From contig DAISVY010000008.1 of NCBI GenBank assembly GCA_036826635.1, forward strand, positions 64,292 to 128,291: a stretch of 64,000 bases of DNA, given 5' to 3'. This DNA comes from Candidatus Zixiibacteriota bacterium (GTDB lineage: Bacteria; Zixibacteria; MSB-5A5; GN15; FEB-12). The first letter of the stretch is position 1. Each line of letters opens with the position of its first letter. Below the pieces are notes generated by a model, which saw only the letters and a program-made list of their open reading frames with translations, ran no database searches and had not been told where the DNA came from. Positions 7,135 to 60,302 of this stretch are shown one piece after another. Made by a program: the position numbers and the translations under genes.

Positions 7135-7156
7135 AATTGACCCCTTGTATATACTT

Positions 7157-7185
7157 GTATCGGCAATTAGAGAATAAACGTGAAC
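7157..7185 (-). promoter_or_regulatory. sigma-28-type promoter candidate for the Cys-rich small ORF
   Basis: Minus strand reads GTTCA-N16-GCCGATAC, the same architecture as the motA site, 22 nt upstream of the ATG at 7134. Confidence 0.5.
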
Positions 7186-7430
7186 CGGCCAAAACACCCG
7201 AGAATAGAAAGATATATGCAGAAACATGCACATAGAAGGGTCAGGGGTAAAAAGAAATTGGTCGAGAGGAAGGATTGTCTTATATTGTCATTATCGAAAA
7301 AGGCTGAAAGACTTCAAGTACTTACGGGTTTATTTCGTCGTTAAACTCAACTCTGGCAGGAATCTAAAATCGGCCGCTCGGAAATGCATGTTTTTTGCTC
7401 CATAGCGAAGCACAACTAATGGGCGGAAAT

Positions 7431-8741: not shown

Positions 8742-8772
8742 CGTCGGGACAGATTTACGAAGATATCGTCAG

Positions 8773-8803
8773 GGCAGCGAAGCTATTCGCTGCCTTTCTT
8801 TTT
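8773..8803 (+). terminator. rho-independent terminator after the T9SS cargo gene
   Basis: GGCAGCGAA-GCTA-TTCGCTGCC followed by TTTCTTTTT. It overlaps the last codons of the convergent fliJ. Confidence 0.7.
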
Positions 8804-9247
8804 GCGGCGTCGGTCAGTGTTGGCACCGATTTCGTCAAGTTCTTTCTGCTCGGCTTTCTCGAGTTCCTGCATATGTTTGAACTGCCAGGTTTCTTTGAGA
8901 GTCTGAAAAATCTTTCGTTCCTTAGCCGCCTCGACCAGCTTCACCCGGCGCTCCTCGGCTTTAAGCTGCAAACCGTGCAGGAGTTCGGCACCACCGAGAC
9001 GTTCCCGTCTCAGCTTCATCAGATAGCGCGAATACACCAATGCCTCGGCCACCGAGATTGACCCGGACAAATGGTTGCGTTGCTGTTTCAACGCGGTCAG
9101 GCGCATATTATCTATCCGGTCCAATTGCTCTTTCTGACGCACGACTTTCTCGACAGCCTCGGCGTGTTCTTTCTGACGTTCCTTTTCTTTGTGACGCCGC
9201 ACGTTGAGCATCGGCTCGAACCGGAATTTGAACTTCTTCCCCGCCAT
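8783..9247 (-). CDS. fliJ: flagellar export chaperone FliJ
   Basis: 154-aa coiled-coil protein (FRFEPMLNVRRHKEKERQKE...) directly after fliI. Confidence 0.75.
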   Translation of the reverse strand: MAGKKFKFRFEPMLNVRRHKEKERQKEHAEAVEKVVRQKEQLDRIDNMRLTALKQQRNHLSGSISVAEALVYSRYLMKLRRERLGGAELLHGLQLKAEERRVKLVEAAKERKIFQTLKETWQFKHMQELEKAEQKELDEIGANTDRRRKKKGSE

Positions 9248-17234: not shown

Positions 17235-17263
17235 GTATCGGCAGGAAAGTTCAATATATGAAC
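17235..17263 (-). promoter_or_regulatory. sigma-28-type promoter candidate for motAB
   Basis: Minus strand reads GTTCA-N16-GCCGATAC; GCCGATA is the FliA/SigD -10 hallmark. It lies 70 nt upstream of the motA ATG. Confidence 0.5.
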
Positions 17264-20098: not shown

Positions 20099-21199
20099 CT
20101 AAAAATAGCTGGTAATCTCAGCGGCGATGTTGTCAATGGGAGCAATGTGATCGGTAATATCAGCCTCGATAACGGCCTTCGGCATACCGTAAACAATACT
20201 GGTTCCTTCATCCTGGGCAATCAGAATACCGCCGCGGCTCTTAAGTAACCTGCCCCCCACGAGCCCATTGGAACCCATACCGGTCAGAATGACCGCCATG
20301 GCTCTGTTGCCGAAAGCTTCCGCTACCGAGTTGATCATCACGTCAATGCAGGGTTTATACAGAGTATCCGCGGGCTCGTCGGTAACCTGAGCGCGAGTCC
20401 GGCCACCGTAGCGCCGAACTTTAAGGTGCTTGCCGCCCGGAGCTATCAACACCAGGCCCGGTTCGACCGGGTCACCGTTTTCCGCTTCTCTGACCGTAAC
20501 CTGCGACAGGCTGTTCAACCGTTCGGCCAGCGATTTGGTGAAAGTCGCCGGCATATGCTGCGCGATAACGATACCGACCGGAAAGTTTTTTGGCAAAGCG
20601 GAAACGACGGTCTGAAGAGCCTGCGGTCCTCCGGTGGATGCCCCTATCGCCACGATGCTGATCCCGTGATGTCTCCGGGGCGGAGATGAGATCTCGACCG
20701 GATGGGTATGAGCAGGTTTGGGAGCAGGAGGCGCCGGGGCGGTAGAAACATGCCGCACATGGTATCGGGCCATCAGGATATGTTTACGCCGAACAACATC
20801 TTTGATCTTGGCCAGCAAACCGTCTTTGATCTTGACGATGTCAAGACTGACGTATGACATCTGCTTGGGGATAAAATCGACCGCCCCCAGTTCCAGCGCC
20901 TGAAGCGTGGCGTTGGCCCCCTCCGTGGTGACCGACGAGATCATCATGACGAGAGTGGGCATGGCCGACATGATCTGGCGCAATGCCGTCAGACCGTCCA
21001 TGCGCGGCATCTCGATATCCATAGTAACCAGGTCGGGCTTGAGCTGCCTGACCTTGGCCACGCCTTCTTCGCCGTCGCGTGCCGTACCGACCACTTTTAT
21101 AGCCGGGTCCGATTCCAGCATCATGGTCAGAGCCTTGCGCATGAATGCGGAGTCGTCGACCACCAGAACTCTTATTGGCGGTGATGTTGTATCGACCAC
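20099..21199 (-). CDS. cheB: chemotaxis methylesterase/deamidase CheB
   Basis: N-terminal REC (RVLVVDDSAFMR...MDIEMPRMDG) plus a CheB esterase domain (GASTGGPQAL, GMGSNG). Confidence 0.92.
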   Translation of the reverse strand: MVDTTSPPIRVLVVDDSAFMRKALTMMLESDPAIKVVGTARDGEEGVAKVRQLKPDLVTMDIEMPRMDGLTALRQIMSAMPTLVMMISSVTTEGANATLQALELGAVDFIPKQMSYVSLDIVKIKDGLLAKIKDVVRRKHILMARYHVRHVSTAPAPPAPKPAHTHPVEISSPPRRHHGISIVAIGASTGGPQALQTVVSALPKNFPVGIVIAQHMPATFTKSLAERLNSLSQVTVREAENGDPVEPGLVLIAPGGKHLKVRRYGGRTRAQVTDEPADTLYKPCIDVMINSVAEAFGNRAMAVILTGMGSNGLVGGRLLKSRGGILIAQDEGTSIVYGMPKAVIEADITDHIAPIDNIAAEITSYF

Positions 21200-21212
21200 T
21201 GATCCGTCCCGG

Positions 21213-22946
21213 TTAACTCAGTTTTTTAGCGATACCGAACAATCCCATCAAATCGACGATCAACCGTATGCGACCGTCACCGAGTATCGCAGCGCCGGCC
21301 ACTCCTTCCGTAGCACCCAAATACCCACCGAGCGATTTGATCACAACCTCTTCCTGCCCCAGGAAACGGTCGGTGATTATACCCAGTTTGCGGTCGGCCA
21401 ACCCAACAATCACAATGTAAGGTTTCTCGGTCAGAACAAAACCCCGAGTCGAGGAACGGAGAATTTCCCCCAAGTTGACAACCGGAACCACCTCATCTCG
21501 CAGGCGCAACACGGGACGTTGATTTACATATGATATGTTGGCACCGGCGGTCCTGACCGTCTCAGAAACCGACGACAACGGCAGAATAAAAACCTCGTCA
21601 TCGGACTGAATAAGTAAACCCCGAATGATAGCCAGCGTAAGCGGCAGTTTTATCGAAATAGTGGTGCCGACATCTTTGGTCGACGCTATCTCGACCAGGC
21701 CGTTAAGTTTTTCTATATTCGTACGGACCACGTCCATACCGACACCACGTCCGGAAACATCGGTAACAACTTTCGCCGTCGAGAAACCCGGCTCGAAAAT
21801 GAATCCGAAAATATCGCGATCAGGCAAGCGCTCGACGTCGGCCCGTGAAACCAGCCCTCTCTCCACCGCTTTCTCTTTGATGGCCTCCACGTTGAGACCT
21901 TTACCGTCATCCTCGATCTTGATCACGATATGCGAACCTTCCTGACTGGCGGAAAGCCTGACGACCCCCTCGGCCGGTTTCCCTTTGGCCACCCGGTCGG
22001 CGGGAGATTCAATACCGTGGTCGCAGGAATTTCTAACAAGATGAACCAGCGGATCGCCTATCTCATCGATGACGGATTTGTCCAGTTCGGTTGTTTCACC
22101 CGAGATTTTCAGTTCAATGTTTTTTCCGTTCTCACGAGTCAAATCACGAACCAGCCGCGGGAACTTACCGAACACCTTTCCCACCGGCTGCATGCGCATT
22201 TTCATAACAGCCAATTGCAACTCGGTGGAGATATAGTTAACGGAAGCGCCTTCGCGACCGAGTCGCTCCTTGATCGCCGCTATGCTGTCGTTGTCCTCGA
22301 AAGAGTTGATCGTCTGAAGCAAGCTATTGCGAGAAAGTACCAGCTCCCCGACCAGATTCATCAAAGCATCGAGACGATTGACATCAACACGTATGGTCTG
22401 CTCGGACATTTTCCTGTCGCCCACACTCCGGACCGAATCGGCTTTCACCGGATCGGGAGCAACAACCGAGGTCTCATCTTCCCCGACAGCCGCCGACACC
22501 TCTTCCATCAGCGACGACAGGGATTCGACCGGGTCCGGCTGCTCGCCACAGACACTGGCCAAGCGGCCGATTATATCATCGAGAGCGACCTCTTCCTGAT
22601 TGCCTTTCCGAACGTTATCAAGAAGGACCTTAAGAACGTCCACCGATTCAAGCAGCAAATCCATAATATCCGGAGTCACCGCTATTTCTGATCGGCGCAG
22701 CTTATTAAGGACATCCTCCATGCTGTGGGTGAGATTGGTAACCTGTTCAAAGCCCAGAAAACAGGAAGTACCTTTAATAGTATGAGCGGCACGAAAAATT
22801 TCGTTCAGAAGATCAAGGTCTCCGGGGGAAGCTTCCAGCCTGACCAGATTCTGGTCCAGTGAAGCGATCAGTTCATCCGCTTCCACCAGGAAATCATCAA
22901 CGATCTCCTGCATCTCGTCCAATTCAAAGTCAGTGTCATTACTCAT
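21213..22946 (-). CDS. cheA: chemotaxis histidine kinase CheA (P1-P3-P4-P5; no obvious P2)
   Basis: HPt AHTIKGTS, dimerisation IRVDVNRLDALMNLVGELVL, HATPase (DDGKGL, GRGVGMDVV), C-terminal CheW-like domain. Only about 50 acidic residues lie between P1 and P3. Confidence 0.92.
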   Translation of the reverse strand: MSNDTDFELDEMQEIVDDFLVEADELIASLDQNLVRLEASPGDLDLLNEIFRAAHTIKGTSCFLGFEQVTNLTHSMEDVLNKLRRSEIAVTPDIMDLLLESVDVLKVLLDNVRKGNQEEVALDDIIGRLASVCGEQPDPVESLSSLMEEVSAAVGEDETSVVAPDPVKADSVRSVGDRKMSEQTIRVDVNRLDALMNLVGELVLSRNSLLQTINSFEDNDSIAAIKERLGREGASVNYISTELQLAVMKMRMQPVGKVFGKFPRLVRDLTRENGKNIELKISGETTELDKSVIDEIGDPLVHLVRNSCDHGIESPADRVAKGKPAEGVVRLSASQEGSHIVIKIEDDGKGLNVEAIKEKAVERGLVSRADVERLPDRDIFGFIFEPGFSTAKVVTDVSGRGVGMDVVRTNIEKLNGLVEIASTKDVGTTISIKLPLTLAIIRGLLIQSDDEVFILPLSSVSETVRTAGANISYVNQRPVLRLRDEVVPVVNLGEILRSSTRGFVLTEKPYIVIVGLADRKLGIITDRFLGQEEVVIKSLGGYLGATEGVAGAAILGDGRIRLIVDLMGLFGIAKKLS

Positions 22947-25428: not shown

Positions 25429-25803
25429 TTATTGCTCCCTGTCTTTCAACTTCGATTCCAGCAACTTGTAAAGTCGGTTGATGTTGAACGGCTTAATAAT
25501 GTAGTCCTCAACCTTGTTTCTCAAACCATTCACGGCCGTCTCGACCGACGGATATCCCGTCATGAGAACAACCGGCATATTCGGATTGGTCTCCTTTACC
25601 CGACTGGTAAGAGCCAGACCATCCATTTCCGGCATTTTGATATCAGTCAGAAGCAAGTCGATCTTCCTGGCGCGGAGAATTTCCAGCGCCTTTTCTCCGT
25701 TCTCCGCAACCGAGATATCCCATCCCTGGCCGGTGAAGAAATCATAGAGCAAATCGCGTATGAGCAACTCGTCGTCAACAACCAGTATAGACGGCCTATT
25801 CAT
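25429..25803 (-). CDS. stand-alone receiver-domain response regulator
   Basis: 124 aa; ILVVDDELLIRD, LTDIKMPEMDG, DYIIKPF. Its start overlaps the stop of the HEAT-repeat gene by 1 nt. Confidence 0.85.
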   Translation of the reverse strand: MNRPSILVVDDELLIRDLLYDFFTGQGWDISVAENGEKALEILRARKIDLLLTDIKMPEMDGLALTSRVKETNPNMPVVLMTGYPSVETAVNGLRNKVEDYIIKPFNINRLYKLLESKLKDREQ

Positions 25804-27716
25804 CAGGAATCCCCCTCGATTTTCCTCAGAGCCATTCTGGCGGCATCGGCCAAGTCCTGGTTGCGGCTGTCTGTCAGCCTGCTGAGCTGAGAGATTGCCT
25901 GGTTACTGCCGATTTGAGACAGCGCCTTGGCGGCTGCTATCTTGATGATATCCATCTCGTCCTCAAGGTACGGGATGATATATTCGGCATACCCCGGTTC
26001 GGCCAGTTCGGCAATAGATACAATCGTATGATATTTCACCCACACGTCTTCATCGTCCAGCAGGAACCGAATATCGGGAACGGCTTTCTTGCCCTTGAGC
26101 GTAATGAGAGCACTGACAGCAGCCTTGCGAACGGCGCTGTCCTCGTCGTTGAGAGCCGTTATTATCGATTCCGTGCTGTCCACCTGACCGATTCTGGCCA
26201 GGGAAGCCACGGCCGATTTGCGTACTCCCGAATCGGGATGATTGACCGCTTTAATCAGCGGCTCCACCACGTCCTGCTCGCCGATCCAGCCAAGAGCGGT
26301 CACGGCCAGCCGTTGTCTCTCGGCATCATCGTGGTAAAGGTCCGACGTAAACTTGGCGACCACTTTGGGACCACCTATAATAATCATGGCCCCGACCGCC
26401 GCCTCGCGGACGTCGGCATATTTGTCGTCGAGACCCGTGGCGACAAAGTCGACTTCATCGTCGGTACACAACCAGCCCAGCGCCGAGAAAGCAGCCGCAC
26501 GAACGTGCCCGTTGGCATCCTCGGCCAGTCGCTTGAGATCTTCCACGGCCGGCGTATATCCCGAAATACCCAGTATATGTGCAACCTTCTGACGAATTTC
26601 GGGATCATCATCGTGAACGTACGGCAATATGTCGGGGGCGACTTTGTCATCGACCAACAATTTCATCACGTCCAGCAGCTTGAGCTTGAGACCTTTGGAA
26701 GCCTGAGGAATCTTCTTTATGATCGCTCCGGCCGCACCGTAGCCGACTTCGCCGAGTATCTCGGTGATACTTTGCAAACGATCGTCATCGACATAATCTA
26801 TAACCTCAAGCAAACCGTTGATAACTTCGCTGCCGTACCAATGCTTCAAATGCGAAAGAGTGAACTCCGTAATAGCCTCGTTGCGATTCTTGATGCCATC
26901 GAAGAGAAACCCGGTGTACCTCTCGAGGGGAATGTCCACGCCAACGCTACCACCGTGCTTTCGGCTTATATCGATGATGGCCGTCATGGCAACTTCACCA
27001 GCCGTACGTTCGGACCCGTCGAGGAATTCGGCCAGATGTGAAATCGACTCCTTTTGGCCGATCTTGCCTATTGCCTCAATAACGATATAGGTCGTAATCG
27101 GATCTTCATTACCCAGGTAACGATAGAGATGTCCCAGAGCCGCAGGATCACCGATCTTACCCAGCGCTTCTATGGCCGGCAGCCGGGCATCTTCGATCCT
27201 TTCGGCAACAGCGATCAGGTCTCCCACAGCGCGGTGCGAGCCTATCTCCCCCAGCGCCTCGGCAGCCGAGCAAACGACGTTGGCATTTTCATCCCAGAGC
27301 CGTTGAAGCAAAGGTTCCACGGCCTCCCCATCACGGATAAGACCGAGAACATCGCATATGAACTTGCGCACGTCGTGATCGTCGTTGTCCAGATTCTCGA
27401 TAAGAGAAGACACCGCCCCGGAACCAATCCTCACCAGAATCTCCGAGGCCAGGTTACGCGTACCGATGTCATCATTGGCAAGGAAACGAATCAATAGCTG
27501 AGCCGCCGTGGCTCCCTTGATACGCGCCAGGTGATCCGCGGCAAGCTCTCGAATGCCCAGATCGGGATCTTCCATAGCGATGACCAGCCCGGCAACCGCT
27601 TCATCCTCGGAATACGTCCCGAGTTCTTTGACGGCTTCCTCACGTTCGAAAAAATCAGGCGACTGCAGCTTGGCCAGCAAGTCCCCGATTTGCTCTTCCA
27701 CTGTGTTCATAACCAT
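25803..27716 (-). CDS. HEAT-repeat (PBS-lyase-type) protein, 637 aa
   Basis: Many tandem repeats of about 31 aa with the pattern D.D..VR..A..ALG.IG (e.g. DPDLGIRELAADHLARI, DHDVRKFICDVLGLI, DSGVRKSAVASLARIG, DSAVRKAAVSALITL). No TM segment or signal peptide. Confidence 0.8.
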   Translation of the reverse strand: MVMNTVEEQIGDLLAKLQSPDFFEREEAVKELGTYSEDEAVAGLVIAMEDPDLGIRELAADHLARIKGATAAQLLIRFLANDDIGTRNLASEILVRIGSGAVSSLIENLDNDDHDVRKFICDVLGLIRDGEAVEPLLQRLWDENANVVCSAAEALGEIGSHRAVGDLIAVAERIEDARLPAIEALGKIGDPAALGHLYRYLGNEDPITTYIVIEAIGKIGQKESISHLAEFLDGSERTAGEVAMTAIIDISRKHGGSVGVDIPLERYTGFLFDGIKNRNEAITEFTLSHLKHWYGSEVINGLLEVIDYVDDDRLQSITEILGEVGYGAAGAIIKKIPQASKGLKLKLLDVMKLLVDDKVAPDILPYVHDDDPEIRQKVAHILGISGYTPAVEDLKRLAEDANGHVRAAAFSALGWLCTDDEVDFVATGLDDKYADVREAAVGAMIIIGGPKVVAKFTSDLYHDDAERQRLAVTALGWIGEQDVVEPLIKAVNHPDSGVRKSAVASLARIGQVDSTESIITALNDEDSAVRKAAVSALITLKGKKAVPDIRFLLDDEDVWVKYHTIVSIAELAEPGYAEYIIPYLEDEMDIIKIAAAKALSQIGSNQAISQLSRLTDSRNQDLADAARMALRKIEGDS

Positions 27717-29838: not shown

Positions 29839-29876
29839 ATATCGGCAGATCGACTTTACAATTGACGAATTAGCCG
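29839..29876 (-). promoter_or_regulatory. sigma-28-type -10 element immediately upstream of the GAF-PP2C gene
   Basis: Minus strand reads GTCAA-N15-GCCGATAT, then 8 nt, then the ATG at 29830. The -35 match is weak, and the transcript would be leaderless. Confidence 0.3.
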
Positions 29877-46411: not shown

Positions 46412-46440
46412 GTTAATCGTCCCCTCCCTACCGCCGATAT
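46412..46440 (+). promoter_or_regulatory. sigma-28-type promoter candidate for the secreted ORF 46450-47022
   Basis: GTTAA-N16-GCCGATAT, then 9 nt, then ATG; implies a leaderless or near-leaderless mRNA. Confidence 0.4.
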
Positions 46441-47102: not shown

Positions 47103-49730
<2,628 letters not shown>

Positions 49731-49769: not shown

Positions 49770-50762
49770 TTATACCTCCCATTCCTCCAGCAGTCGGCGC
49801 TGCTTGTCGGTCAGCGTTTTGGGAATAGAGACTTTGATCTCGACATACAGATCCCCCTGCGTACCGCCCACCGCCAGACCCATGCCCTTGAGTCGCATCG
49901 TTGCGCCCGGCTGGGTACCCGGCGGAACGGTCAAAGCTACGGTTTTCGTCAGGGTCTTCACATTCTTCTTGCAGCCCTTAATGGCTTCGACAAACGAAAT
50001 TTCCAGCGAACTGAAGATATCGTTGCCCTTGCGTTCGAATTGCTGATCCGGCATAACTCTCACCGTTATGATTAAATCACCGTTTTCACCACCGAAAGGC
50101 CCGGGCTGTCCCTGGCCGCGCAGACGGATCTTGCCGCCGTCATCTATTCCCGCCGGGATTTTCACCCGCAGCTTCTTGCCGCCATCGGGACCGCTGACCG
50201 CCATGATACGTTCCGTCCCGGAGATCATCTCCTGAAACGAGATAGTGATCGAACTCGCGATATCGGTCCCTCGCTGCGCTTTTCTGCGACCGCGCGTGAA
50301 TGTCTCCGGCCCCATGCGACTCCCGCTCGCTCCGCCGGCGCTATGCGCCCCACCGAAAAACGAAGACAGGATATCCTCCAGGCCGTTCATTCCGGTGTTG
50401 CCGCGTCCGCCGAAATGGACCTTGAAACCCTGCGCCCCACTGTCCGTGAAATCCGAGAAATCGAAACCATGGGCGCCGAAACCTCCCTGAGCGGCTCGTC
50501 CGAACTGCGAGAAATTGGCCCCGCCCGTCGGACCGCCGGCGAAAGCACCGTACTTGCGCAGCATATCATATTCCTGACGTTTCTGCTTGTCGGAAAGAGT
50601 GCTGTAAGCCTCGGAGATCTCTTTGAATTTCGCCTCGGCCGCCTTGTCGCCCTTGTTGTGATCGGGATGATGCTTCTTGGCCAGCTTGCGGTATGCACGC
50701 TTGATCTCGTCGATCTCGGCGTTTTCGGGAACACCCAATATTTTGTAATAATCAGCGGCCAT
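49770..50762 (-). CDS. DnaJ-class co-chaperone without the zinc-finger domain (CbpA-like)
   Basis: J domain DYYKILGV...[10 protein letters not shown]-rich linker, DnaJ C-terminal domains; no CxxCxGxG repeats. Confidence 0.85.
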
Positions 50763-50904: not shown

Positions 50905-51342
50905 TTACGCAACCTTCACCTCGATCTGTTTCGGCTTGACTTCCTCAAGCTTCGGCATCGTCACTTCCAGCATGCCGTTCTTGTAGTCAGCCGAAATCTT
51001 CTCGTGGTTGACCGTCTCGGGCAAAGTGAACGAGCGGCAGAAAGCCCCGCTTGAAATCTCACTGCGCACATAGTCGTCTTCCTTGACCTCGCGCTTCAAT
51101 TCACGGGTACCGGAAACGGTCAGGGTACCGTCGTCCATCGTTACCTTGATGTCCTTCTTTTCCATGCCGGGCAGTTCGAAAGTCAGGCGAACATCATCCT
51201 TGGTTTCGTGGATGTTCACCCTCGGGACAAACTCACTGTCGTCTTCGGCAGACCGCCGCGGGAAACGTAAGAAATCATCAAAGAACTGGTCAAAGTCTCT
51301 GGCCCACAGGCTGCGGTTGGGGCGAATCATCATCTTGGTCAT
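50905..51342 (-). CDS. Hsp20/alpha-crystallin small heat-shock protein
   Basis: 145 aa; PRVNIHETKDDVRLTFELPGMEKKDIKV...GMLEVTMPK. Confidence 0.9.
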   Translation of the reverse strand: MTKMMIRPNRSLWARDFDQFFDDFLRFPRRSAEDDSEFVPRVNIHETKDDVRLTFELPGMEKKDIKVTMDDGTLTVSGTRELKREVKEDDYVRSEISSGAFCRSFTLPETVNHEKISADYKNGMLEVTMPKLEEVKPKQIEVKVA

Positions 51343-51518: not shown

Positions 51519-51550
51519 CGCCGATATGACAGCAGTCTGCCATATCGGCG
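51519..51550. repeat. 14-bp inverted repeat (one mismatch) downstream of the 739-aa HEAT gene
   Basis: CGCCGATATGACAG-CAGT-CTGCCATATCGGCG. Each arm carries GCCGATAT on one strand. No T-run follows on the minus strand. Confidence 0.6.
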
Positions 51551-51569
51551 GTAAATCCAGCCTGTGAAC
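51542..51569 (-). promoter_or_regulatory. sigma-28-type promoter-like element about 200 nt upstream of hsp20
   Basis: Minus strand reads GTTCA-N15-GCCGATAT. The -10 is also one arm of the inverted repeat at 51519-51550. Confidence 0.35.
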
Positions 51570-51573
51570 TAAA

Positions 51574-53793
51574 TCAATAGCGAGAAAGAACCTCTGAAAT
51601 GGCCCTGTTAACCGCAGAATTCTTGAACAAAACCTTGGACGCAGTCGACTGACTTTCCCTGAACTTCTTTATATGCTCAATGGACGGTTTGTCGCCTATC
51701 TGACCGAGTGCCTTAATCACGGCCACTTTCAAATCGTCCCGGGAAACCCGACCACCGGCAAGATCGGCCAGTTTCTGCGGGTCACACAGCAGATCAGTCA
51801 GAAACATCCGGGCTTCTTCACCCCCAAGCTTGCCCAGGGCGGTGACCGCCCGGACAGCTTCCCCGCCTTGGCGACGGGCAATATCGATGAGAATAGGCGC
51901 CGCTTCCGGCTTCCCGGTCAAACCAATAGCGATAATAGCAGCCTCGCGGACTTCCCTGAGCGGATCGTCAGCCATCAGGGTCAAACAATCGACCGCCTCC
52001 TCGCCGCCGATTTTTTCCAGCGCGGCAATGATCTCCCGCCTGACCCGAACATCCTTGTCGGATATCCGCGCGCGAAGAGCCGGAATCCCCTGCTGATCGT
52101 GCAGCGAACCGAGAACGAATATACAATTGCGCACGATGTACCATTTCTCATCCGGGAGCTCATGACGGTCGGACGGTCGTTCCAGCATACTGTCATCGAG
52201 CAGCATACGGGAAAACACCTTCAGCGACGACTTGCCCAGCTCGGCCAGTATTTTCAACGTTAACTGTCTTACTGCGCGAAGAGGATGAGAAATAATACGG
52301 GACAAAGCCAGAGCAACACTCTCCGAACCGATATTAACCAGGGTTTCTTTGATAAACCCGGCCTGATCGTGCTGAGCGGTTGTCAGCTCGGCAATCAATC
52401 GATCTATTATCTCGGGCCGGGCGATATTCTCGAACCCTTTTTTCACGGCCATGGAATCGTAAACGGTCACGTTGTCGTTCACCGTTCGCCGCCCGGCCAT
52501 AGCCTGAACCAGCCGCGCCATCAGATCGTATTGCTTCTCGGCATGACACGACTCGAAGATCTTCCACAGAAGCTCCGAGTATTCGTAGGTTTCGCGGTGC
52601 GACTCCAGACGCCTGACCACACCGTCAACCGCGGCTTCCATCACCACCCGATCGGTAAGAGAGCTTAACTGCCCCACCACGGTTACCAGAAGATTAAGCG
52701 CCAACTGACGGAAACCGGGATTATCGGAACCCATATAATCAATCAGGCGACCGAGCAATTCCTGAGCTTTTATCTGTTGACCGGTTTTCAGCAGACGCAG
52801 GAAACTATCGCTGAATTCCGAGATGTCATACTTGCGCTGCCCCTCCGCAAACATGCTGTCGACCAGTTTGTCAACCTGCCGAACCAGTTCTATCTTTATG
52901 GCTCCGGTCTGAGAATGCGGATCATCCACGCCGCCCGCGACATCAAGCCCACTCGACAGTTTCTGATCGAACCCGTCCACGATGAGGTCATGCTGCGGAT
53001 GACTTTCCACCAGCTTGAACATCGACATATAGCGCCAGGTGGCGTCCTCTTTCTTCTGCGGATCGGCGGCGGGGTCGTTGATCTCACACGTCAGATCGGT
53101 CAGGTAGTCGCGGATTCTCTCTGGCGAAATCGTCGCGATTTTCTCCGCCAGCAGATATTCAAGAATGGCCGGATCGAAATCTATACCGTATTTAAGCAGG
53201 GTCGTATCATGCGCTCCCTGGACTCGGGTAAGCAATCCCAAATCGGTCCCGAACTGATCCATGGCCAAATGCCTGACCGAAAAATCCCCACCGGCGTCGC
53301 CACGATACTTCCGGCGATTCTCAAACAGCTCGAAGGCCGTTTCCGTATTGACCTGAATGGCCTCTACCCCCTGTTTTCTGAGGTAGTCGCTGAAAATGAA
53401 ATCGGGCGTGTTGGCGATCTCCCGCCTGGTCATACTTTCGATAAACGTGGTCAACTCACCGATGGTCATGCGTCGCTCGAAGATGATCGTCTTGACATCG
53501 AGCACCTGGAGCAATTGCACGATCTGATCACTGAACACCGATTCCTTAAGCTGGATATTCATCATGTACAAACGGCCGCGTTCGATGTTCAGAGTCACAA
53601 CGGTTTTGAATCTGAAAATACCGTCGATAACGAAAAACGGTTTCTCGACGGCCTTGGCCGACTGCGGGTGGTCCTTGCCGTAGACCGTCACTTTGCGACA
53701 GGCCATGGCCAACTCACGCACCAGAGCGTGAGCCTCGTCGCAGAGATTGGTACTCAATGTTGATTCTTTAATCGACGTTGTAGATCGCTTCAT
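51574..53793 (-). CDS. 739-aa cytoplasmic protein with an unknown N-terminal region and C-terminal HEAT repeats
   Basis: C-terminal repeats DKDVRVRREIIAALEKIG, DPLREVREAAIIAIGLTG, GGEAVRAVTALGKLG. No TM segment or signal peptide. The ATG at 53793 overlaps the upstream gene by 26 nt (alternative TTG at 53757). Confidence 0.7.
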   Translation of the reverse strand: MKRSTTSIKESTLSTNLCDEAHALVRELAMACRKVTVYGKDHPQSAKAVEKPFFVIDGIFRFKTVVTLNIERGRLYMMNIQLKESVFSDQIVQLLQVLDVKTIIFERRMTIGELTTFIESMTRREIANTPDFIFSDYLRKQGVEAIQVNTETAFELFENRRKYRGDAGGDFSVRHLAMDQFGTDLGLLTRVQGAHDTTLLKYGIDFDPAILEYLLAEKIATISPERIRDYLTDLTCEINDPAADPQKKEDATWRYMSMFKLVESHPQHDLIVDGFDQKLSSGLDVAGGVDDPHSQTGAIKIELVRQVDKLVDSMFAEGQRKYDISEFSDSFLRLLKTGQQIKAQELLGRLIDYMGSDNPGFRQLALNLLVTVVGQLSSLTDRVVMEAAVDGVVRRLESHRETYEYSELLWKIFESCHAEKQYDLMARLVQAMAGRRTVNDNVTVYDSMAVKKGFENIARPEIIDRLIAELTTAQHDQAGFIKETLVNIGSESVALALSRIISHPLRAVRQLTLKILAELGKSSLKVFSRMLLDDSMLERPSDRHELPDEKWYIVRNCIFVLGSLHDQQGIPALRARISDKDVRVRREIIAALEKIGGEEAVDCLTLMADDPLREVREAAIIAIGLTGKPEAAPILIDIARRQGGEAVRAVTALGKLGGEEARMFLTDLLCDPQKLADLAGGRVSRDDLKVAVIKALGQIGDKPSIEHIKKFRESQSTASKVLFKNSAVNRAISEVLSRY

Positions 53794-54919
53794 TTTTCTC
53801 TCCGAAGCAGACTATTTCTCCTGACTGAGTGGCAACGTAAACCCGCCGACCGTCCGTCACCGGACCAAAAGCTATTGCTCCCTCAAGTTCGGCCGCATCC
53901 ACCAGCGTCCCATCATCCGCCTTCAGAACCAGAACCCGTCCGGTCATCGTCCCGACAATTACAAACTCACCGACGGCCAAAGGCGATCCCTTGACGACTT
54001 CACCCGTGGAATAACGCCACAACTGGCGCCCACCGGCCGTTTCCAGGGCAACTACGCCCCCTCCGCTGTGACCGATGAACACCCTGCCGTGGGCCACCAC
54101 CGGGGTTGTCCATATCGGCGCCCCAATATCCTGCTGCCACAGAATCGCACCGCTGGCGGGCTCAAGGGCATATACCCGACCGAGCATATCAGCGACAAAG
54201 ATTCGTTCACCTGCCGCCACCGGACTGACTACGGGTCCGTCAAAGTCAACCTGATAAAGCTCCCGGGCGTCTTCTACTGAAAGAACACAGAGCCGTCCCC
54301 GGTCAACCGGTTGGTACAAGCGACCATCAGCATAACTGACAGCGGCTGCAAGTTGTTGTTCCGGCTCGAAAGCCCAATCCACCTGGCCGTCTTCAAGGGC
54401 GTATGCTTCAAGCTTACCCTCGGTCGACGAAACCAGAAGGCGATTATTCACTATTATCGGAGAAGGTTGAGCATCCTTAACGGGCCGGTTCCAGAGCACC
54501 TTATATCTTATCAGGTCATAGGCATACAGGCGGCTCCGTCGAGGTCCCAAAGCCACGAAACCGAGAGAATCGGCAGTCACCAAACCGCTCTGCGGTACCC
54601 CTTTCAGCTTAATACGCCCCAGCTTTTGTCCCGTAATCAGATCATAAAAGACGATCCTTTTCTTGGTATTGGGATAAATCAGGCAGCCATGGCCAATCGT
54701 CAGCGGCCCGGCGGGTTTCCCGCCATACCGGGTTTGCCAGACGATATTCAGATGCCCGCGAAACTCGCCCGACTCCACCGCACCTGTCGCGGCCGCCGTA
54801 CCGTGCGCAAAAGGCCATTTCTCCTCGAACGAAATCTGGTTTCGCTTCAGATGATAGCGCGCTCCGCAGGAAACCAGCAGAAACAACAAAGGAAACACGA
54901 GCAGCAAACGCCGGAACAT
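53768..54919 (-). CDS. PQQ-like beta-propeller lipoprotein (BamB-like)
   Basis: MFRRLLLVFPLLFLLVSCG lipobox. Repeated xxVYAxDxxxGxxxW blades (RLYAYDLIRYKVLW, GRVYALEPASGAILW, GGVVALETAGGRQLW). The ATG at 54919 overlaps the upstream stop (TGATG); the track GTG start is 54931. Confidence 0.75.
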   Translation of the reverse strand: MFRRLLLVFPLLFLLVSCGARYHLKRNQISFEEKWPFAHGTAAATGAVESGEFRGHLNIVWQTRYGGKPAGPLTIGHGCLIYPNTKKRIVFYDLITGQKLGRIKLKGVPQSGLVTADSLGFVALGPRRSRLYAYDLIRYKVLWNRPVKDAQPSPIIVNNRLLVSSTEGKLEAYALEDGQVDWAFEPEQQLAAAVSYADGRLYQPVDRGRLCVLSVEDARELYQVDFDGPVVSPVAAGERIFVADMLGRVYALEPASGAILWQQDIGAPIWTTPVVAHGRVFIGHSGGGVVALETAGGRQLWRYSTGEVVKGSPLAVGEFVIVGTMTGRVLVLKADDGTLVDAAELEGAIAFGPVTDGRRVYVATQSGEIVCFGEKNEAIYNVD

Positions 54920-57729
54920 CAGAAATTCCACCCGAAGAAAAAGTCAAAATCGAATTTGGGACTTACCGTTTCAAAGTCGGTGGTCCGCGTGAAATCAAAA
55001 CGAAGCTGGACAACATAGCCCAGATTAACCCGTACCCCGGCACCGAACGAACCCAGGAACCGGTCGAAATCATCGTCCCAGGCGTTACCGACATCGAAAA
55101 ACATTGCCCCGCGAATACCGCGGAAATCAAGACCGCCGATGGGGAAACCGATCAACAGAGCGTCAATAAGGGGGAAACGCAGTTCATTCGAGGCAAACAG
55201 TACATTACGATTATAGAAATGACGACGACCAAACCCCCGAAACGACCAGCTCCCGCCGAAATATATACGCTGAGGATCATAGCCCGCCGAGGAGTATGCA
55301 AAAAGGCGATTGGCCAGCGCGGAATAGCGCCCCAGGCGAAAATAATGGCGCACATCGGCAAAAGCCAGCCGGTTCCAACTACGACCCTCGTCAAGAGAGT
55401 AAGTCACCCCGGCTGAAAAATTGTAGCGACGACCTTCGATTGGTCCGGAGATGTCCCAGATTGAGTTGTCATAAACCCAGCTTAACAGACCGGTTACCAG
55501 AAACCCTTCCCGGTCTTCCTGCCCGTAACGCAGATCCTTCTTCTCATAGCGCACATACGTATTCAGGTCAAAGCGGTCGAATTTGGACACCGGGTACGAA
55601 AACATCCCCACCACCCCGGCCTGACGCTTATAGAAATACTGATCGTGGTCATTGTAGTACTCGTCGTAAAGATGAAACAGTCCCGCTCCCCAGTTCATCC
55701 GCTTTTCCCGATTGAGATAGCTGACCGCGACATTGAACGACGAGAGTATTTCGTCTTTGCTTTCGGCCGTGTTGGCCACCAGAAAATAGTAGGCATGGTT
55801 GCCCAGGATGTCAGACACGGCCGCCTGAACACCACCCATCGAACCATAGATGGGATCATAAGTAATCATGGACTGGGCAATATCGAACGAATAATCGGTG
55901 TCGTATCGTATCGAGGCCCGGGCGGTTTTTCCGTCGATCTGCCGGGGATACCAGCAGACGGAACCGGAATCGGGCGCCACGGTTGCAAGGGGCTGAGGAT
56001 CGGCGATCAGTTTCATGCTGTACACATGGTACTGCATATCCTGATAACCGGAGTAAATGAGCTCCGAACCGTCGGACGAAAGACGCGGATCATGCGCCCC
56101 CGTGACATAAGTCGACTGCCGTGTAATCTGACCGGAACTGTCGAGCAGAAAAAGATTGTACGAACCCAAACGGTCGGACGAGAAGAAAATCCCGTGCTCC
56201 GTCACCTCGGGCGTTTCGTCCCGGAAATTGCCGAAGGTGAGTTGTTTCACCCGGCGGCCGTTACGAAGGTCTATCTCGAATAAATTGACCGCTCCTTCTT
56301 CTCCGTGTGCACCCTGATCGGACGAAAAGACAATACGGCTGCCGTCCGTCGAAAAAGCCGGATCGATGTCGTTGTAAATATCCTCGGTGATGGCTTCGTA
56401 CTTACCGGTCTCCAGATGCAACAGGAAAATGTCCGCCTGCCCGCTCTTGCGTATACCGGAAAATACCACCTGCCGTTCATCGGGCGAAAAACGCGGTGAC
56501 CGCGCCGCCACCAAATCCTCGATACGATAACTGTCCGTCACCCGACTGCAATTCAGATCGTACACATACAACACGTCCCGGGCTTTGGATTTCGAAGAGA
56601 ACACGATCAGACCGGAGTTGGTGGCGTCAATCCCGGAGCGCAGCAGATAAAGCGATTCGAATCTGCTGGAACGTTCACCTTTTATCAACGTGCGAAGGCC
56701 TTTTCCGTTCGGCCGTCGCGGTTTGAGATATATACCCGTGTAGCCTCGGCGATAGGCCATGAAGACAAGCCACTCTTTGGTGCCATGACCGTCGTCCCAG
56801 GTAACAGGCACGCCTTTGACACAATAACCGTCGTAGGTCAGGCGGTCCGATTCCATTTCGGGCAAACCCAACTCGGCCATCTGCGGGTAATAACGTTTCT
56901 TCTGAGCATACTCCCATTTCGCCGAAAGCTCGTGAAGTCCGTCCCCGAGAGTATACCGGACGACCTCATCGAAAGTGCGCCCCTTGGTCCAGTTATCGAA
57001 CAGCCGGGTGAGTTTATCGGGACCGTACTCGTCGTTGATAAACATACACACGGACTGCCCCAGCTTGTACATGAAATAGCTTCCGCGAACCGTCCAGAAC
57101 TCGGAAATCGGCAGTAAGCCACCGCGAATGACCATATCCTTGATGATCAGGTCCGCCTCCGTATCCCAGCCTTCCGACCAGTATTCGGCGATGCCTTCGG
57201 TAAACCAGAGCGGCGGATAAAGGTAACGCGGACGAGACTGGCGTTCCATGCGCTCGGCCAGTTTCGAGAACATGAAAACATGCACCAGTTCATGCCGAAT
57301 GACATGAACGAAATCATAATAGGAACCGTAAAACGGCACCACCACTCGCCCCTTAAGAAATTCGGTAAAACCACCCACCGATTCCGGCAGAAGCTGCGTC
57401 ACCACGTTGGTCTGGGCGAAATGGCCGGGCGAGGAATAAATAATAAGCGGGATCTTTCGCGTTATCTCGTGGTTGAATTTCGCCGCCAGCGGGGCGTAGG
57501 CATCTTCGGCAATCCGAGCCGCAACGCGAGCGACCGAACCCTCGTCGACATAGAAATAGATACGGAAATGCTCCGTCGTCATGACCTGCCAGTCAAAACT
57601 GGCATACTGCACTTTGTTTTTACCGAAATAGAACTGCCCGACAGCCGGAGTTACCAGCAAACCGACCAGGGTAACAGCCAACAGCAGAGTGCCGAATTTC
57701 CGTATTCTGATATCCCTGAGGGGTGACAT
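54919..57729 (-). CDS. 936-aa outer-membrane protein: MA-clan peptidase-like domain, TolB-type PD40 propeller and C-terminal beta-barrel
   Basis: Signal peptide; HExxH (IRHELVHVF) followed by WFTEGIAEYW; PD40 repeats (SPRFSPDERQVVFSG, DPAFSTDGSRIVFSSD, DPRLSSDGSELIYSG); barrel ending FDFFFGWNF. Confidence 0.75.
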   Translation of the reverse strand: MSPLRDIRIRKFGTLLLAVTLVGLLVTPAVGQFYFGKNKVQYASFDWQVMTTEHFRIYFYVDEGSVARVAARIAEDAYAPLAAKFNHEITRKIPLIIYSSPGHFAQTNVVTQLLPESVGGFTEFLKGRVVVPFYGSYYDFVHVIRHELVHVFMFSKLAERMERQSRPRYLYPPLWFTEGIAEYWSEGWDTEADLIIKDMVIRGGLLPISEFWTVRGSYFMYKLGQSVCMFINDEYGPDKLTRLFDNWTKGRTFDEVVRYTLGDGLHELSAKWEYAQKKRYYPQMAELGLPEMESDRLTYDGYCVKGVPVTWDDGHGTKEWLVFMAYRRGYTGIYLKPRRPNGKGLRTLIKGERSSRFESLYLLRSGIDATNSGLIVFSSKSKARDVLYVYDLNCSRVTDSYRIEDLVAARSPRFSPDERQVVFSGIRKSGQADIFLLHLETGKYEAITEDIYNDIDPAFSTDGSRIVFSSDQGAHGEEGAVNLFEIDLRNGRRVKQLTFGNFRDETPEVTEHGIFFSSDRLGSYNLFLLDSSGQITRQSTYVTGAHDPRLSSDGSELIYSGYQDMQYHVYSMKLIADPQPLATVAPDSGSVCWYPRQIDGKTARASIRYDTDYSFDIAQSMITYDPIYGSMGGVQAAVSDILGNHAYYFLVANTAESKDEILSSFNVAVSYLNREKRMNWGAGLFHLYDEYYNDHDQYFYKRQAGVVGMFSYPVSKFDRFDLNTYVRYEKKDLRYGQEDREGFLVTGLLSWVYDNSIWDISGPIEGRRYNFSAGVTYSLDEGRSWNRLAFADVRHYFRLGRYSALANRLFAYSSAGYDPQRIYFGGSWSFRGFGRRHFYNRNVLFASNELRFPLIDALLIGFPIGGLDFRGIRGAMFFDVGNAWDDDFDRFLGSFGAGVRVNLGYVVQLRFDFTRTTDFETVSPKFDFDFFFGWNF

Positions 57730-57941
57730 ATTACCGTATGGGGCTTCGGAGGTTCCTTCACATCATTAACGGCTCGGCGAGAGCGACGGTTCCAATCGCC
57801 ACCGACCGCCGAAATCCGACGGCCGTACGATTATCCCTATATCTGCTGTATCGACCGCCGGCTCGCATAGTTGACTTCTTGCCGGATATCTCTCGGAAAC
57901 TCTCCCCGGTGGCCAGGTCGCCCGGTACCAAAAGAATGACG

Positions 57942-59528
57942 TCAGCCCACACCCGCATGTTCAATCCGGCACTCAACCGCAGCGAGCAGATTGTCGAACA
58001 CCAGTTGCTCGCCCCCGCGCCCGGACTCAATGAGTTGCTGAATCATCTTCGGTCCATACCCGGTCCGCACCAGACAGGATTCGGCCCCGATCACCCGCCC
58101 CAGGTACGCATCCACCAGCGAATCGCCCACCACCAGAGATCGGCGGAGATCAATTCCCAAATCCAGCGCGGCCGCCTCGGCCATCCCGGCCGCGGGCTTG
58201 CGGCTGCCACTTTCGCGCGCGAATTCGGTTACCCGACCGCGAGAATGGTAAGGACAGTAGTACAACCCGTCCACCTCCACTTTTTCCCGAGCCAGGATTT
58301 CGAGCAACCGACCGTTTACCCTCTCAACGTCTTCAATACCGAACAACCCGCGGGCCACCCCCGATTGATTGGAAACAATAACGATCTTGTAACCGGCGGC
58401 TTTCGCTCGTCGAAGAGCTTCGGCCGACCCCGGAATCAACTCCACCTGATCCGGATCGGACAGGAAATACTTATCCGCTATGATCGTGCCGTCCCTGTCG
58501 GCAATCAGCGCCGGCGAGTTGTCTTTGGTCGCGGCCAGCATTTCCTCGATTGTTCGGACCACGTCTTCGGGCGTTATGCCGGTAAGACAATAGCGCTCAT
58601 CGCGGATACAGGGACCTTCGCCATGCAGAGAACACGGTCGGCAGGCCTCGTCCACTTCGATTATCCGGTCATGCAACCCGCGCGGAGCAAAACCAAGCAC
58701 CGGATGAGTCGGTCCGAAAACAGCCAGCACCGGCGTACCGACCGCCGACGACAGATGGGCAACTCCGGAATCATTGGCCAGAGTAAGATCGGCCCGGGCC
58801 ATCACCGCCGCCAGCTTGTCTATGGGACAGTCGACCAGTTGTATCACGTCTTCTTCCGGCAACGAACCGGTCCACGCCACCGCGTGCGCATCGGCGGCCG
58901 TCAGAGCCCGGATTATCCGAATCCCATGCGATGAATTAAGCTCTTCGGCCACCGCCGCAAAACGTTCCGGCGGCCACTGCTTGACCGCATGAGCCGCCCC
59001 GGGCGCTATCACCACGACACGGTGAGCCGCAAAGAATTCGTCGCTGATCTCATCGGGAAGAGTCCCGACATGCATAACCGGCCGCCGACAGAAGACACTC
59101 TGTCCGATTTGTCGCAGGACATCATTGTATAAGTCGATAGTGTGAGGATATTCAGCGGGGAAAATCTTCTTCCGCACGGCTTGGCGACGTTCCCCTCGTC
59201 TCCGGGGATAAACCAGCCGGGTGTTGGCAGTCAGCAGCTTTCGTACACACCAGGAACGGAAATTGCCGTGAAGATCGACAATAAGGTCGAAACCGGTTTT
59301 GTCCAATTCAGTAAGGGTGGAAAACAACTCCCGGGCCGAGGCATGGTCGGGGACGGTTCTGATTTCGTCCACTCCGTCGAAACACTCCACGACCGGGCGA
59401 AAGCGTTCTTTGGTCAGAAAAACCAGATGGCTGCCGGGATTGTTAAGATGCAGGTTGAGCACCGTAGCTGAGGTCAGGACAACGTCTCCCAGCGACCCGA
59501 AGCGTACAACAAGGATCTTCTTCCGCAT
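57942..59528 (-). CDS. bifunctional glycosyltransferase family 9 (heptosyltransferase-like) / GmhB-type HAD phosphatase
   Basis: N-terminus MRKKILVVRFGSLGDVVLTSA (GT9 hallmark). C-terminal 185 aa carry HAD motifs IADRDGTII, VSNQSGVARG and VGDSLVD (D,D-heptose-1,7-bisphosphate phosphatase type). Confidence 0.75.
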   Translation of the reverse strand: MRKKILVVRFGSLGDVVLTSATVLNLHLNNPGSHLVFLTKERFRPVVECFDGVDEIRTVPDHASARELFSTLTELDKTGFDLIVDLHGNFRSWCVRKLLTANTRLVYPRRRGERRQAVRKKIFPAEYPHTIDLYNDVLRQIGQSVFCRRPVMHVGTLPDEISDEFFAAHRVVVIAPGAAHAVKQWPPERFAAVAEELNSSHGIRIIRALTAADAHAVAWTGSLPEEDVIQLVDCPIDKLAAVMARADLTLANDSGVAHLSSAVGTPVLAVFGPTHPVLGFAPRGLHDRIIEVDEACRPCSLHGEGPCIRDERYCLTGITPEDVVRTIEEMLAATKDNSPALIADRDGTIIADKYFLSDPDQVELIPGSAEALRRAKAAGYKIVIVSNQSGVARGLFGIEDVERVNGRLLEILAREKVEVDGLYYCPYHSRGRVTEFARESGSRKPAAGMAEAAALDLGIDLRRSLVVGDSLVDAYLGRVIGAESCLVRTGYGPKMIQQLIESGRGGEQLVFDNLLAAVECRIEHAGVG

Positions 59529-60302
59529 TCAGATGAAAAGATAAAGCCCTATCACACCGACCGCAAAGCAATAGTACGCAAAGTACTCGAATTTCCCGCG
59601 CCTGATCGTCGCCAGCACACCGTATACGGCGATAAGGCCGAAAACAAAAGCGGACAGAGCCCCGGCCAGATAATGCCACAGGCTCACGCTGTCAAGCTGT
59701 ATCAACTCTTCCGACTTGAACAAAACAGCCCCGGCAATAGCGGGAATAGCCAGCAAAAAAGAGTATTCGGCTGCCTCGCGTGGTTTTACCCCCAGCATCA
59801 TTCCGGTCGCTATGGTCGTCCCCGACCGCGATATGCCCGGCAATACGGCGGCGGCCTGGGCCAGTCCTATTATCACCGCCGAAAACCAGCCTACCGACTC
59901 TGCCCGTTTGGGAACAAAGCGAGTACTCAACAATACCGCCCCGGTCACCAGCAACATAGCCGAGGTAAAAACCGGATTGCTGAAAACACGCTCGAACAAA
60001 CCGTTGAAAATCAGCCCCAGAAAAGCAACGGGAAGCGTCCCCACGACCAGAAGAGCCAGCAGTCGACGCTCCGATTTCATTCCACGGACGAAAACAGAAC
60101 GGATCAGCCTGAATATCCGAGTCCGAAAATACACCAGTACCGCTACCAGTGTACCCAGATGAGCCAGCAACTCAAATATCACCCCGGGCGGGTTTACACC
60201 CATTATTTCCTGAACAAGAACAAGGTGCCCTGAAGAGGAGATGGGAAGAAATTCGGTCAGCCCCTGAATGATGCCCAGAAAAACAGCCTCAAGATAGGTC
60301 AT
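59529..60302 (-). CDS. uppP: undecaprenyl-diphosphate phosphatase UppP (BacA)
   Basis: 257 aa polytopic; GIIQGLTEFLPISSSGH and PGISRSGTTI motifs. Confidence 0.92.
   Translation of the reverse strand: MTYLEAVFLGIIQGLTEFLPISSSGHLVLVQEIMGVNPPGVIFELLAHLGTLVAVLVYFRTRIFRLIRSVFVRGMKSERRLLALLVVGTLPVAFLGLIFNGLFERVFSNPVFTSAMLLVTGAVLLSTRFVPKRAESVGWFSAVIIGLAQAAAVLPGISRSGTTIATGMMLGVKPREAAEYSFLLAIPAIAGAVLFKSEELIQLDSVSLWHYLAGALSAFVFGLIAVYGVLATIRRGKFEYFAYYCFAVGVIGLYLFI

Follow-up and report, generated by a model that had tools for sequence, protein, structure and literature searches.

Which products of a gene cluster act together when two of them are exported to the cell envelope and the third is not? This question is raised by three overlapping genes in a stretch of 64,000 nucleotides (nt) from Candidatus Zixiibacteriota bacterium (contig DAISVY010000008.1, positions 64,292 to 128,291; G000:C8:64292-128291), which we call the window and which belongs to a genome of 2.8 Mb in 16 contigs. 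The genes encode a 936-amino-acid (aa) protein combining a peptidase, a propeller, and an outer-membrane barrel, a BamB-like lipoprotein, and a HEAT-repeat protein. With roughly even confidence, we predict that they specify an outer-membrane-anchored envelope metalloprotease complex accompanied by a lineage-specific cytoplasmic accessory or regulator.

Organization of the Three-Gene Unit

The three overlapping genes of the preliminary description are indeed present as minus-strand open reading frames (ORFs), and the TGATG overlap of a stop with the next start was found in the sequence as described:

54919..57729, minus strand: 936-aa outer-membrane protein with signal peptide, gluzincin peptidase, TolB-like propeller, and POTRA-less Omp85 barrel (Pfam, NCBIfam, AlphaFold2, Foldseek)
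53768..54919, minus strand: BamB-like PQQ-propeller lipoprotein, 383 aa from the ATG at 54919 (PQQ_2, E 1.6e-34, Pfam)
51574..53793, minus strand: 739-aa HEAT protein, an N-terminal alpha/beta domain and a long alpha-solenoid (Pfam, AlphaFold2, Foldseek)
54917..54921, minus strand: junction of the barrel and lipoprotein genes, TTC-TGA-TG, the stop TGA sharing 1 nt with the ATG (TGATG)

A longer ORF of the lipoprotein gene, from a GTG at 54931, begins with MEFLM, which is an out-of-frame reading of the conserved C-terminus of the barrel (GWNF-stop); such ghost prefixes (MEFLM, MELLM, or MGFLM) accompany most lipoprotein orthologs. At the junction of the lipoprotein and HEAT genes, two arrangements had been proposed, a 26-nt overlap or a TTG start at 53757. 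The overlap, with the HEAT gene starting from the ATG at 53793, is retained, since the N-termini of the HEAT orthologs align from the equivalent position, and a Shine-Dalgarno sequence, GGAGAG, lies 5 nt before this ATG; on both grounds the TTG start is disfavored.

Domain Structure of the 936-aa Protein

A signal peptide, an HExxH...EG.AEY module, PD40 blades, and a C-terminal barrel ending in F had been read in this protein, and all four are confirmed by Pfam, NCBIfam, and a structural model:

57637..57729, minus strand: signal peptide, residues 1-31 (...TPAVG/QF), read from the sequence; helix 7-24 in the model
56860..57591, minus strand: zincin (Peptidase_MA_2) domain, residues 47-290 (Pfam and model)
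57280-57294, minus strand: HELVH, residues 146-150 (sequence)
57181-57198, minus strand: EGIAEY, residues 178-183 (sequence; HELVH-X27-EGIAEY)
56005..56832, minus strand: TolB/PD40-like beta-propeller, residues ~300-575, about six blades (Pfam PD40, NCBIfam, PDB search, model, Foldseek)
54922..55920, minus strand: 16-strand Omp85-type barrel, residues ~604-936, C-terminal residue F (...FFFGWNF) (model, Foldseek)
55234-55257, minus strand: loop-6 motif GGSWSFRG, residues 825-832, between barrel strands 11 and 12 in the model, as in BamA loop 6
55087-55101, minus strand: FFDVG (FxDxG motif), residues 877-881, conserved across phyla

The Peptidase_MA_2 match covers residues 74-273 (E 3.7e-8, 33.8 bits against a cut-off of 32.4), and the profile of the zincin domain, compared with PDB, yielded only a non-significant match to M9 collagenase around EGIAEY (E 0.13). 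The TolB model TIGR02800 matches the propeller part only (E 9e-25, 87.4 bits against a cut-off of 343), and TolB alone was retrieved when PDB was searched by sequence. For the AlphaFold2 model, which used 40 sequences from several phyla, the predicted local distance difference test score (pLDDT) is 82.4 and the predicted template-modeling score (pTM) 0.79; the model has 16 long strands, spanning residues 613-934, and a linker of 25-30 low-structure residues (576-603) between the propeller and the barrel. Foldseek relates this model to TolB (3.6e-11) and to the BamA/TamA barrels (1e-9 to 1e-7), with target-normalized TM scores of 0.56-0.62 against BamA barrels. The Omp85/BamA models of NCBIfam match residues 666-936 weakly (TIGR03303, 15.5 bits against a cut-off of 297; NF047779, 24 against 200), and no POTRA domain was found by Pfam, by NCBIfam, or in the model.

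The motifs HExxH, EGxAE, GGxxxxRG[YF], and FxDxG are invariant or near-invariant across phyla. The zincin residues H146, E147, H150, E178, G179, and A181, as well as the Omp85 hallmarks G825, G826, R831, and D879, do not vary either in the 40 sequences used for the model or in 14 sequences at 26-34% identity. Whether the protein is an enzyme or a pseudo-enzyme had been made to depend on conservation of HExxH and the downstream Glu; since the zincin motif does not vary, the protein is probably an active enzyme, and this invariance supports the prediction of a catalytically competent gluzincin carried by a genuine Omp85 barrel.

The 936-aa protein was also considered as the BamA or the TolB of this organism and rejected as either, since both are encoded elsewhere in the genome and score above the respective cut-offs (BamA at C3:184106-186523, 420 bits; TolB at C3:146182-147405, 388 bits). 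Thus the barrel module is additional to BamA and TolB.

In the genome studied here, there is also a 1090-aa paralog of the fusion (G000:C3:75724-78994; locus L124 7722-10994, minus strand), 35% identical along the N-terminal 575 aa; two or more matches are present in most Zixibacterial genomes. The paralog is located downstream of a gene with the 5-enolpyruvylshikimate-3-phosphate (EPSP) synthase fold (MurA-like), and a GCCGATAT motif lies about 139 nt upstream of the paralog.

Conservation of the Barrel-Lipoprotein Pair

The N-terminus of the lipoprotein, MFRRLLLVFPLLFLLVSC, contains the lipobox LVSC at residues 15-18, its Cys being encoded at 54866-54868, and a Cys after a hydrophobic leader is present in nearly all of 78 orthologs. 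The BamB equivalog model TIGR03300 gives 134.6 bits, under its cut-off of 285.2; judged by its sequence, the lipoprotein is BamB-like and not BamB. Its gene, coding for a propeller of the eight-blade (PQQ/BamB-like) type, is translationally coupled to the barrel gene.

The barrel family is large. At least 1999 relatives, nearly all labelled Zixibacteria, were found in a word-indexed search, and an exhaustive search produced 1029 clusters at 50% identity with E <= 1e-30. All 151 sampled Zixibacterial genomes (151/151) contain an ortholog, and a scan of a genome collection revealed full-length homologs, at 35-42% identity, in metagenome-assembled genomes (MAGs) labelled Eisenbacteria, Gemmatimonadota, Latescibacterota, Ignavibacteria, Calditrichia, and Bacteroidota. 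Gene neighborhoods were compared using ORF/BLAST maps of 100 loci. The BamB-like gene is situated directly downstream of the barrel gene in each of the 20 sampled Zixibacterial loci, and it occupies the same position in loci labelled Ignavibacteria, Calditrichia, Latescibacterota, Gemmatimonadota, and Bacteroidota (two of them confirmed by Pfam). Of 60 distinct Zixibacterial loci, 36 show the 1-nt stop/ATG overlap (TGATG or TAATG), which is also present in six loci from other phyla (Ignavibacteria, Calditrichia, and Bacteroidota-labelled). Given the adjacency, the 1-nt overlap, and the Cys of the lipoproteins, the barrel-lipoprotein pair is the conserved unit, and these two genes form the conserved core of the operon across several phyla of the Fibrobacteres-Chlorobi-Bacteroidetes (FCB) group.

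In one Zixibacterial family, other sequence of about 2.2 kb (L026 (G004:C9) 6920-9131) lies between the barrel gene on one side and the lipoprotein and HEAT genes on the other. Further, several MAGs named uncultured Ignavibacteriales or Ignavibacteria (L057-L059, L061, L064, L075, L107, L112, and others) contain orthologs at 56-64% identity and carry the full Zixibacterial gene order, from uppP to hsp20; their taxonomic labels look wrong.

Linkage of the HEAT Gene to the Pair

Within the order to which this genome belongs, the coordinates of the barrel and HEAT orthologs were compared by hand. A HEAT ortholog, at 31-56% identity, is present in 71 of 83 genomes; in 70 of these 71 it comes directly after the lipoprotein gene on the same strand, at a distance of 1.1-1.3 kb downstream from the barrel gene, and the remaining genome is too fragmented to judge. 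The other 12 genomes of the order lack the HEAT ortholog; among them are the complete CP070777 and CP070756, where hsp20 directly follows the lipoprotein gene. In the phylum, a HEAT-family gene lies within ~3.5 kb of the barrel gene in at least 111 of 151 genomes, and about a quarter of the genomes have no HEAT gene. Hence the synteny of the triad, on which the preliminary description had made its reading depend, recurs elsewhere in Zixibacteria; no HEAT-family gene adjoins the pair at any of the mapped non-Zixibacterial loci.

In other Zixibacterial families, a HEAT paralog is encoded directly upstream of the barrel gene, for instance with 4-nt overlaps in L087 and L103, and families f10 and f11 have both the upstream and the downstream copy. 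A maximum-likelihood tree separates the upstream and downstream copies into two clades with 100/100 support, which points to an old duplication followed by differential loss. In one Zixibacterial family, the upstream paralogs (~880 aa; L023 6638-9292, L087 4302-6947, L103 4341-6977) contain a long Gly/Ser-rich low-complexity insert right behind the conserved N-terminal domain. The possibility that the HEAT gene is tied to hsp20 instead of the pair was rejected, since the upstream paralogs abut the barrel gene and not hsp20.

Translational coupling had been taken as a mark of stoichiometric partnership of all three products. This is not supported for the HEAT protein: none of the non-Zixibacterial loci has its gene, and whole lineages of Zixibacteria lack it although they retain the pair. 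On the same evidence from gene content, the HEAT protein is best described as a phylum-specific, dispensable, and persistently linked accessory, not a core subunit.

Structure of the HEAT Protein

The first 450 aa or so of the HEAT protein had been called unrecognizable. In fact, they resolve into an alpha/beta domain of ~150 aa and part of an alpha-solenoid, and what stands of the earlier statement is that the domain itself has no direct match in Pfam, NCBIfam, or, by sequence, PDB:

53299..53754, minus strand: N-terminal alpha/beta domain, residues ~14-165 (alignment, profile search, hhalign)
51577..53196, minus strand: alpha-solenoid, residues ~200-739 (Pfam, model, Foldseek)
52126-52143, minus strand: conserved WYxVRN motif in the solenoid (alignment)

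The repeats recognized by Pfam (HEAT_2, 94.4 bits; HEAT_PBS, 54.6 bits) are confined to residues 545-710. In the AlphaFold2 model (pLDDT 88.2), the alpha/beta domain (~17-160) is followed by a continuous solenoid, all-helical from ~200 to the C-terminus; Foldseek matched this model to ARM/HEAT solenoids only and did not identify the fold of the N-terminal domain. In the alignment of all family members, Y38, H42, and P52 are invariant, P43 and the WYxVRN motif near-invariant. Neither a signal peptide nor a hydrophobic segment was found in the protein or its paralogs, and no family member has a signal peptide, in agreement with the absence of an export signal reported for the third product.

A word search with the single sequence of the N-terminal domain retrieved orthologs only. 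A profile of the first 320 residues matches the HD_5/HD (HD-GYP-type) proteins P0340 (E 2e-8) and P0342 and the Gemmatimonadales protein P0341. In hhalign, the N-terminal domain aligns with the N-terminus of P0340 over 128 columns (probability 96.9%, E 1.9e-10), and the HD domain of P0340 was found by Pfam at 195-355. By this profile evidence, the domain and the N-terminal domain of HD-GYP proteins are homologs, and hence the N-terminal part of the HEAT protein is a module that also occurs on proteins of the cyclic di-GMP (c-di-GMP) phosphodiesterase type. No HD or HD_5 catalytic domain was detected by Pfam in the 739-aa protein, and the same genome contains no second copy of the N-terminal domain.

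P0341, a partial protein of 516 aa on a 3-kb contig, is a whole-length homolog of the HEAT family outside Zixibacteria, with both a YPPGHP domain and WYVIRN. A relationship between the two HEAT proteins of the window (the other is encoded at 25803-27716) was considered and rejected, as they have only generic HEAT repeats in common.

Gene Neighborhood and Candidate Promoters

The module is flanked by envelope genes upstream and by heat-shock genes downstream:

59529-60302, minus strand: uppP, upstream of the barrel gene (Pfam)
57942-59528, minus strand: GT9 heptosyltransferase-GmhB fusion, between uppP and the barrel gene (Pfam)
50905..51342, minus strand: hsp20, 231 nt after the HEAT gene (Pfam)
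49770-50762, minus strand: dnaJ-like gene, after hsp20 (Pfam)
47103-49730, minus strand: clpB, after the dnaJ-like gene (Pfam)
57849..57875, minus strand: candidate sigma-28-type promoter GTCAAC-N14-GTCGATA, ~120 nt upstream of the barrel ATG (motif)
51543-51569, minus strand: sigma-28-type motif of hsp20 (motif)
46412-46439 and 9401-9427, plus strand; 29840-29866, 21190-21217, 17236-17263, 7158-7185, and 54455-54481, minus strand: remaining copies of the motif in the window (motif scan)

The order uppP, GT9-GmhB is conserved within the order of this genome. The hsp20 gene follows the module in most Zixibacterial loci and in none of the other phyla. In relatives, a gene of ~330 aa for a radical S-adenosylmethionine protein lies between the GT9-GmhB and barrel genes (L006 6858-7847, L007 6833-7819); at this position, the present genome (57730-57941) and G034 have a spacer of only 150-210 nt.

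The composite motif GTYVA-N13-17-BYCGATA was found nine times in the window against 1.7±1.4 expected, an excess of about five-fold, and upstream of the barrel gene in 11 of 102 orthologs against 0.3 expected. It precedes motA/motB, cheB, the flagellar rod genes, and the head of the che cluster, and also the gene of a secreted 190-aa protein. The copy inside the lipoprotein gene (54455-54481) may have arisen by chance or may serve as an internal promoter. The shared motif suggests a sigma-28-type regulon; in this lineage, such a motility-type sigma factor may have envelope and chaperone genes under its control. Just past the HEAT stop, at 51519-51550, a 14-bp inverted repeat with GCCGATAT in both arms lies over the putative -10 element of hsp20; it has no T-tract and could be a terminator of the operon or an operator.

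Relation to Described Systems

The preliminary description could name no described system of this composition. Indeed, no characterized complex composed in this way was found in the literature, but the propeller-Omp85 fusion itself was catalogued in 2014 by Heinz and Lithgow (Front Microbiol 5:370) as the uncharacterized WD40-Omp85 cluster, comprising a TolB-like propeller and an Omp85 barrel and likened by these authors to a BamA-BamB fusion; non-POTRA subfamilies of the Omp85/TpsB superfamily were recognized in the same study (PMC4104836). The 936-aa protein has the defining feature of this cluster, a propeller N-terminal to the Omp85 barrel and in the place of POTRA domains; the assignment was made by the definition in the paper. 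The paper does not mention a peptidase (PMC4104836), nor does it include a coupled BamB-like lipoprotein gene or a HEAT partner. The module is thus a catalogued barrel type to which a third, Zixibacteria-specific gene has been added, and what is new here is the quantified linkage of the HEAT gene, its two ancient flanking paralogs, the identity of the HEAT N-terminal domain, and the shared promoter motif.

Several characterized systems resemble the module in part. With BamA-BamB it shares the 16-strand barrel, the RG[FY] loop-6 and FxDxG motifs, and a PQQ-type propeller lipoprotein as the partner; however, BamB binds POTRA-3 of BamA, whereas the 936-aa protein has no POTRA domain, the scores for TIGR03303 and TIGR03300 are far under their cut-offs, and the true BamA is encoded elsewhere. 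TolB, the best structural match of the model, has the same propeller fold with PD40 repeats, but the 936-aa protein lacks the TolA-binding N-terminal domain of TolB and is far under the TIGR02800 cut-off. In the type Vd patatin-Omp85 protein PlpD, as here, an N-terminal enzyme is fused to a C-terminal Omp85 barrel; PlpD, in contrast, has a POTRA domain and a lipase passenger, and neither a propeller nor a coupled lipoprotein. BepA, YcaL, and LoiP are M48 zinc proteases that act on substrates of the beta-barrel assembly machinery (BAM) (PMC13067283). As zinc metalloproteases of the envelope with a functional link to an Omp85 machine, they are proposed as functional analogs of the peptidase, from which they differ in family (M48 with tetratricopeptide repeats versus Peptidase_MA_2) and in being soluble or lipoprotein enzymes that are not fused to a barrel. 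Finally, the HD-GYP (HD_5) proteins P0340 and P0342 share with the HEAT protein the homologous N-terminal alpha/beta domain of ~130-150 aa with its YPxxHP motif, and carry a catalytic domain where the HEAT protein has the alpha-solenoid.

Proposed Function and Alternatives

A proteolysis or assembly machine with a cytoplasmic regulator, as predicted from the sequences, is a reasonable reading of the locus. In the form that we favor, the barrel protein and the lipoprotein would form an outer-membrane complex with the peptidase and propeller on the periplasmic side, in the position usual for POTRA domains. This complex would cleave envelope proteins, either for quality control or in the processing of outer-membrane proteins or lipoproteins, which would make it a functional counterpart of a BAM-associated protease such as BepA, the propellers serving as platforms for substrates or partners. 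The HEAT protein has no export signal, and many lineages do without it; for these reasons it is most likely a regulator or scaffold that is specific to the lineage and expressed together with the envelope pair, and it is unlikely to be a structural subunit. In the order of this genome, a sigma-28-type promoter like that of the adjacent hsp20-dnaJ-clpB unit appears to drive the operon.

Several observations weigh against this proposal. Complex formation, the topology (periplasmic or surface), and the substrates are all inferred, and no experimental study of any member of the barrel family was found in the literature. Of the curated Omp85 models, PF01103 gave no match to the 936-aa protein at E<0.1 in Pfam, although precomputed matches exist on some of its orthologs. 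Most barrel homologs of Eisenbacteria have no recognizable lipoprotein gene adjoining, and the 1090-aa paralog on contig 3 has no BamB-like lipoprotein neighbor either; thus the barrel protein can work without an adjacent partner gene. There is no evident task for a cytoplasmic protein in the service of an outer-membrane pair, and in other families the sigma-28-type motif is absent upstream of the operons that start with the upstream HEAT paralog.

Among the rival explanations, we regard as unlikely, though as the strongest of them, a type Vd-like autotransporter, in which the Omp85 barrel would export its own peptidase-propeller passenger to the surface as a nutritional or surface-remodeling protease, the lipoprotein aiding assembly or being itself displayed. 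The order of an enzyme followed by an Omp85 barrel, as in PlpD (PMC4104836), the low-structure linker ahead of the barrel, and the weak, non-significant collagenase similarity around EGIAEY are in line with it. However, no POTRA domain separates passenger and barrel as it does in PlpD, a folded six-blade propeller with a 250-aa zincin would be a bulky passenger, and the N-terminal domains of Omp85 proteins are periplasmic by default. An acidic stretch after the Cys is the usual mark of surface lipoproteins in Bacteroidota, and the lipoprotein has none (CGARYH...). Rather less probable is a specialized insertase resembling BAM or the translocation and assembly module (TAM), the barrel inserting or translocating dedicated substrates, the propellers replacing POTRA domains and BamB, and the zincin acting as a binding module or maturation peptidase. 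The retained loop-6 and FxDxG motifs of insertases speak for it, as do the comparison of the family with a BamA-BamB fusion (PMC4104836) and the coupling to a BamB-like lipoprotein, which mirrors BamA-BamB; but these motifs are common to all Omp85/TpsB members whatever their function, the strictly conserved catalytic residues argue for real proteolysis, and no candidate substrate gene is conserved beside the pair across phyla in the mapped loci.

The remaining alternatives concern the HEAT gene. That it is a mere passenger of a conserved neighborhood, functionally unrelated to the pair, seems improbable to about the same degree as the insertase. The lack of an export signal, the absence of the gene from non-Zixibacterial loci and from about a quarter of the Zixibacterial genomes with the pair, and the conservation of the uppP-to-clpB gene order as a block within the order are all compatible with a passenger; yet two anciently separated paralogs abut the pair on opposite sides with overlapping gene ends, the linkage is kept in families whose remaining neighborhood differs, and the N-terminal domain has no other copy in the genome. 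To a more ambitious version we assign a still lower probability: a trans-envelope regulatory unit in which the cytoplasmic protein, as a sensor-scaffold that joins an HD-GYP-type N-terminal domain to an alpha-solenoid and is represented by two ancient flanking paralogs, tunes the production or precursor handling of the protease-barrel complex in step with the sigma-28-type and heat-shock regulons.

Implications

If real, such a trans-envelope unit would be a new way to couple cytoplasmic signaling to outer-membrane proteolysis. Independently of it, an outer-membrane operon rarely has the gene of a cytoplasmic protein as a stable component, as is the case with the HEAT partner, one domain of which is otherwise known from c-di-GMP phosphodiesterases. 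The conserved coupling of the barrel and lipoprotein genes offers a concrete two-protein complex to test. Outer-membrane biogenesis in the FCB group is known to differ from that of Escherichia coli. The barrel protein belongs to a large uncharacterized family, with more than 1000 clusters at 50% identity, that joins a protease directly to an Omp85 barrel; once its substrate is found, a new use of the Omp85 scaffold in this group would become apparent.

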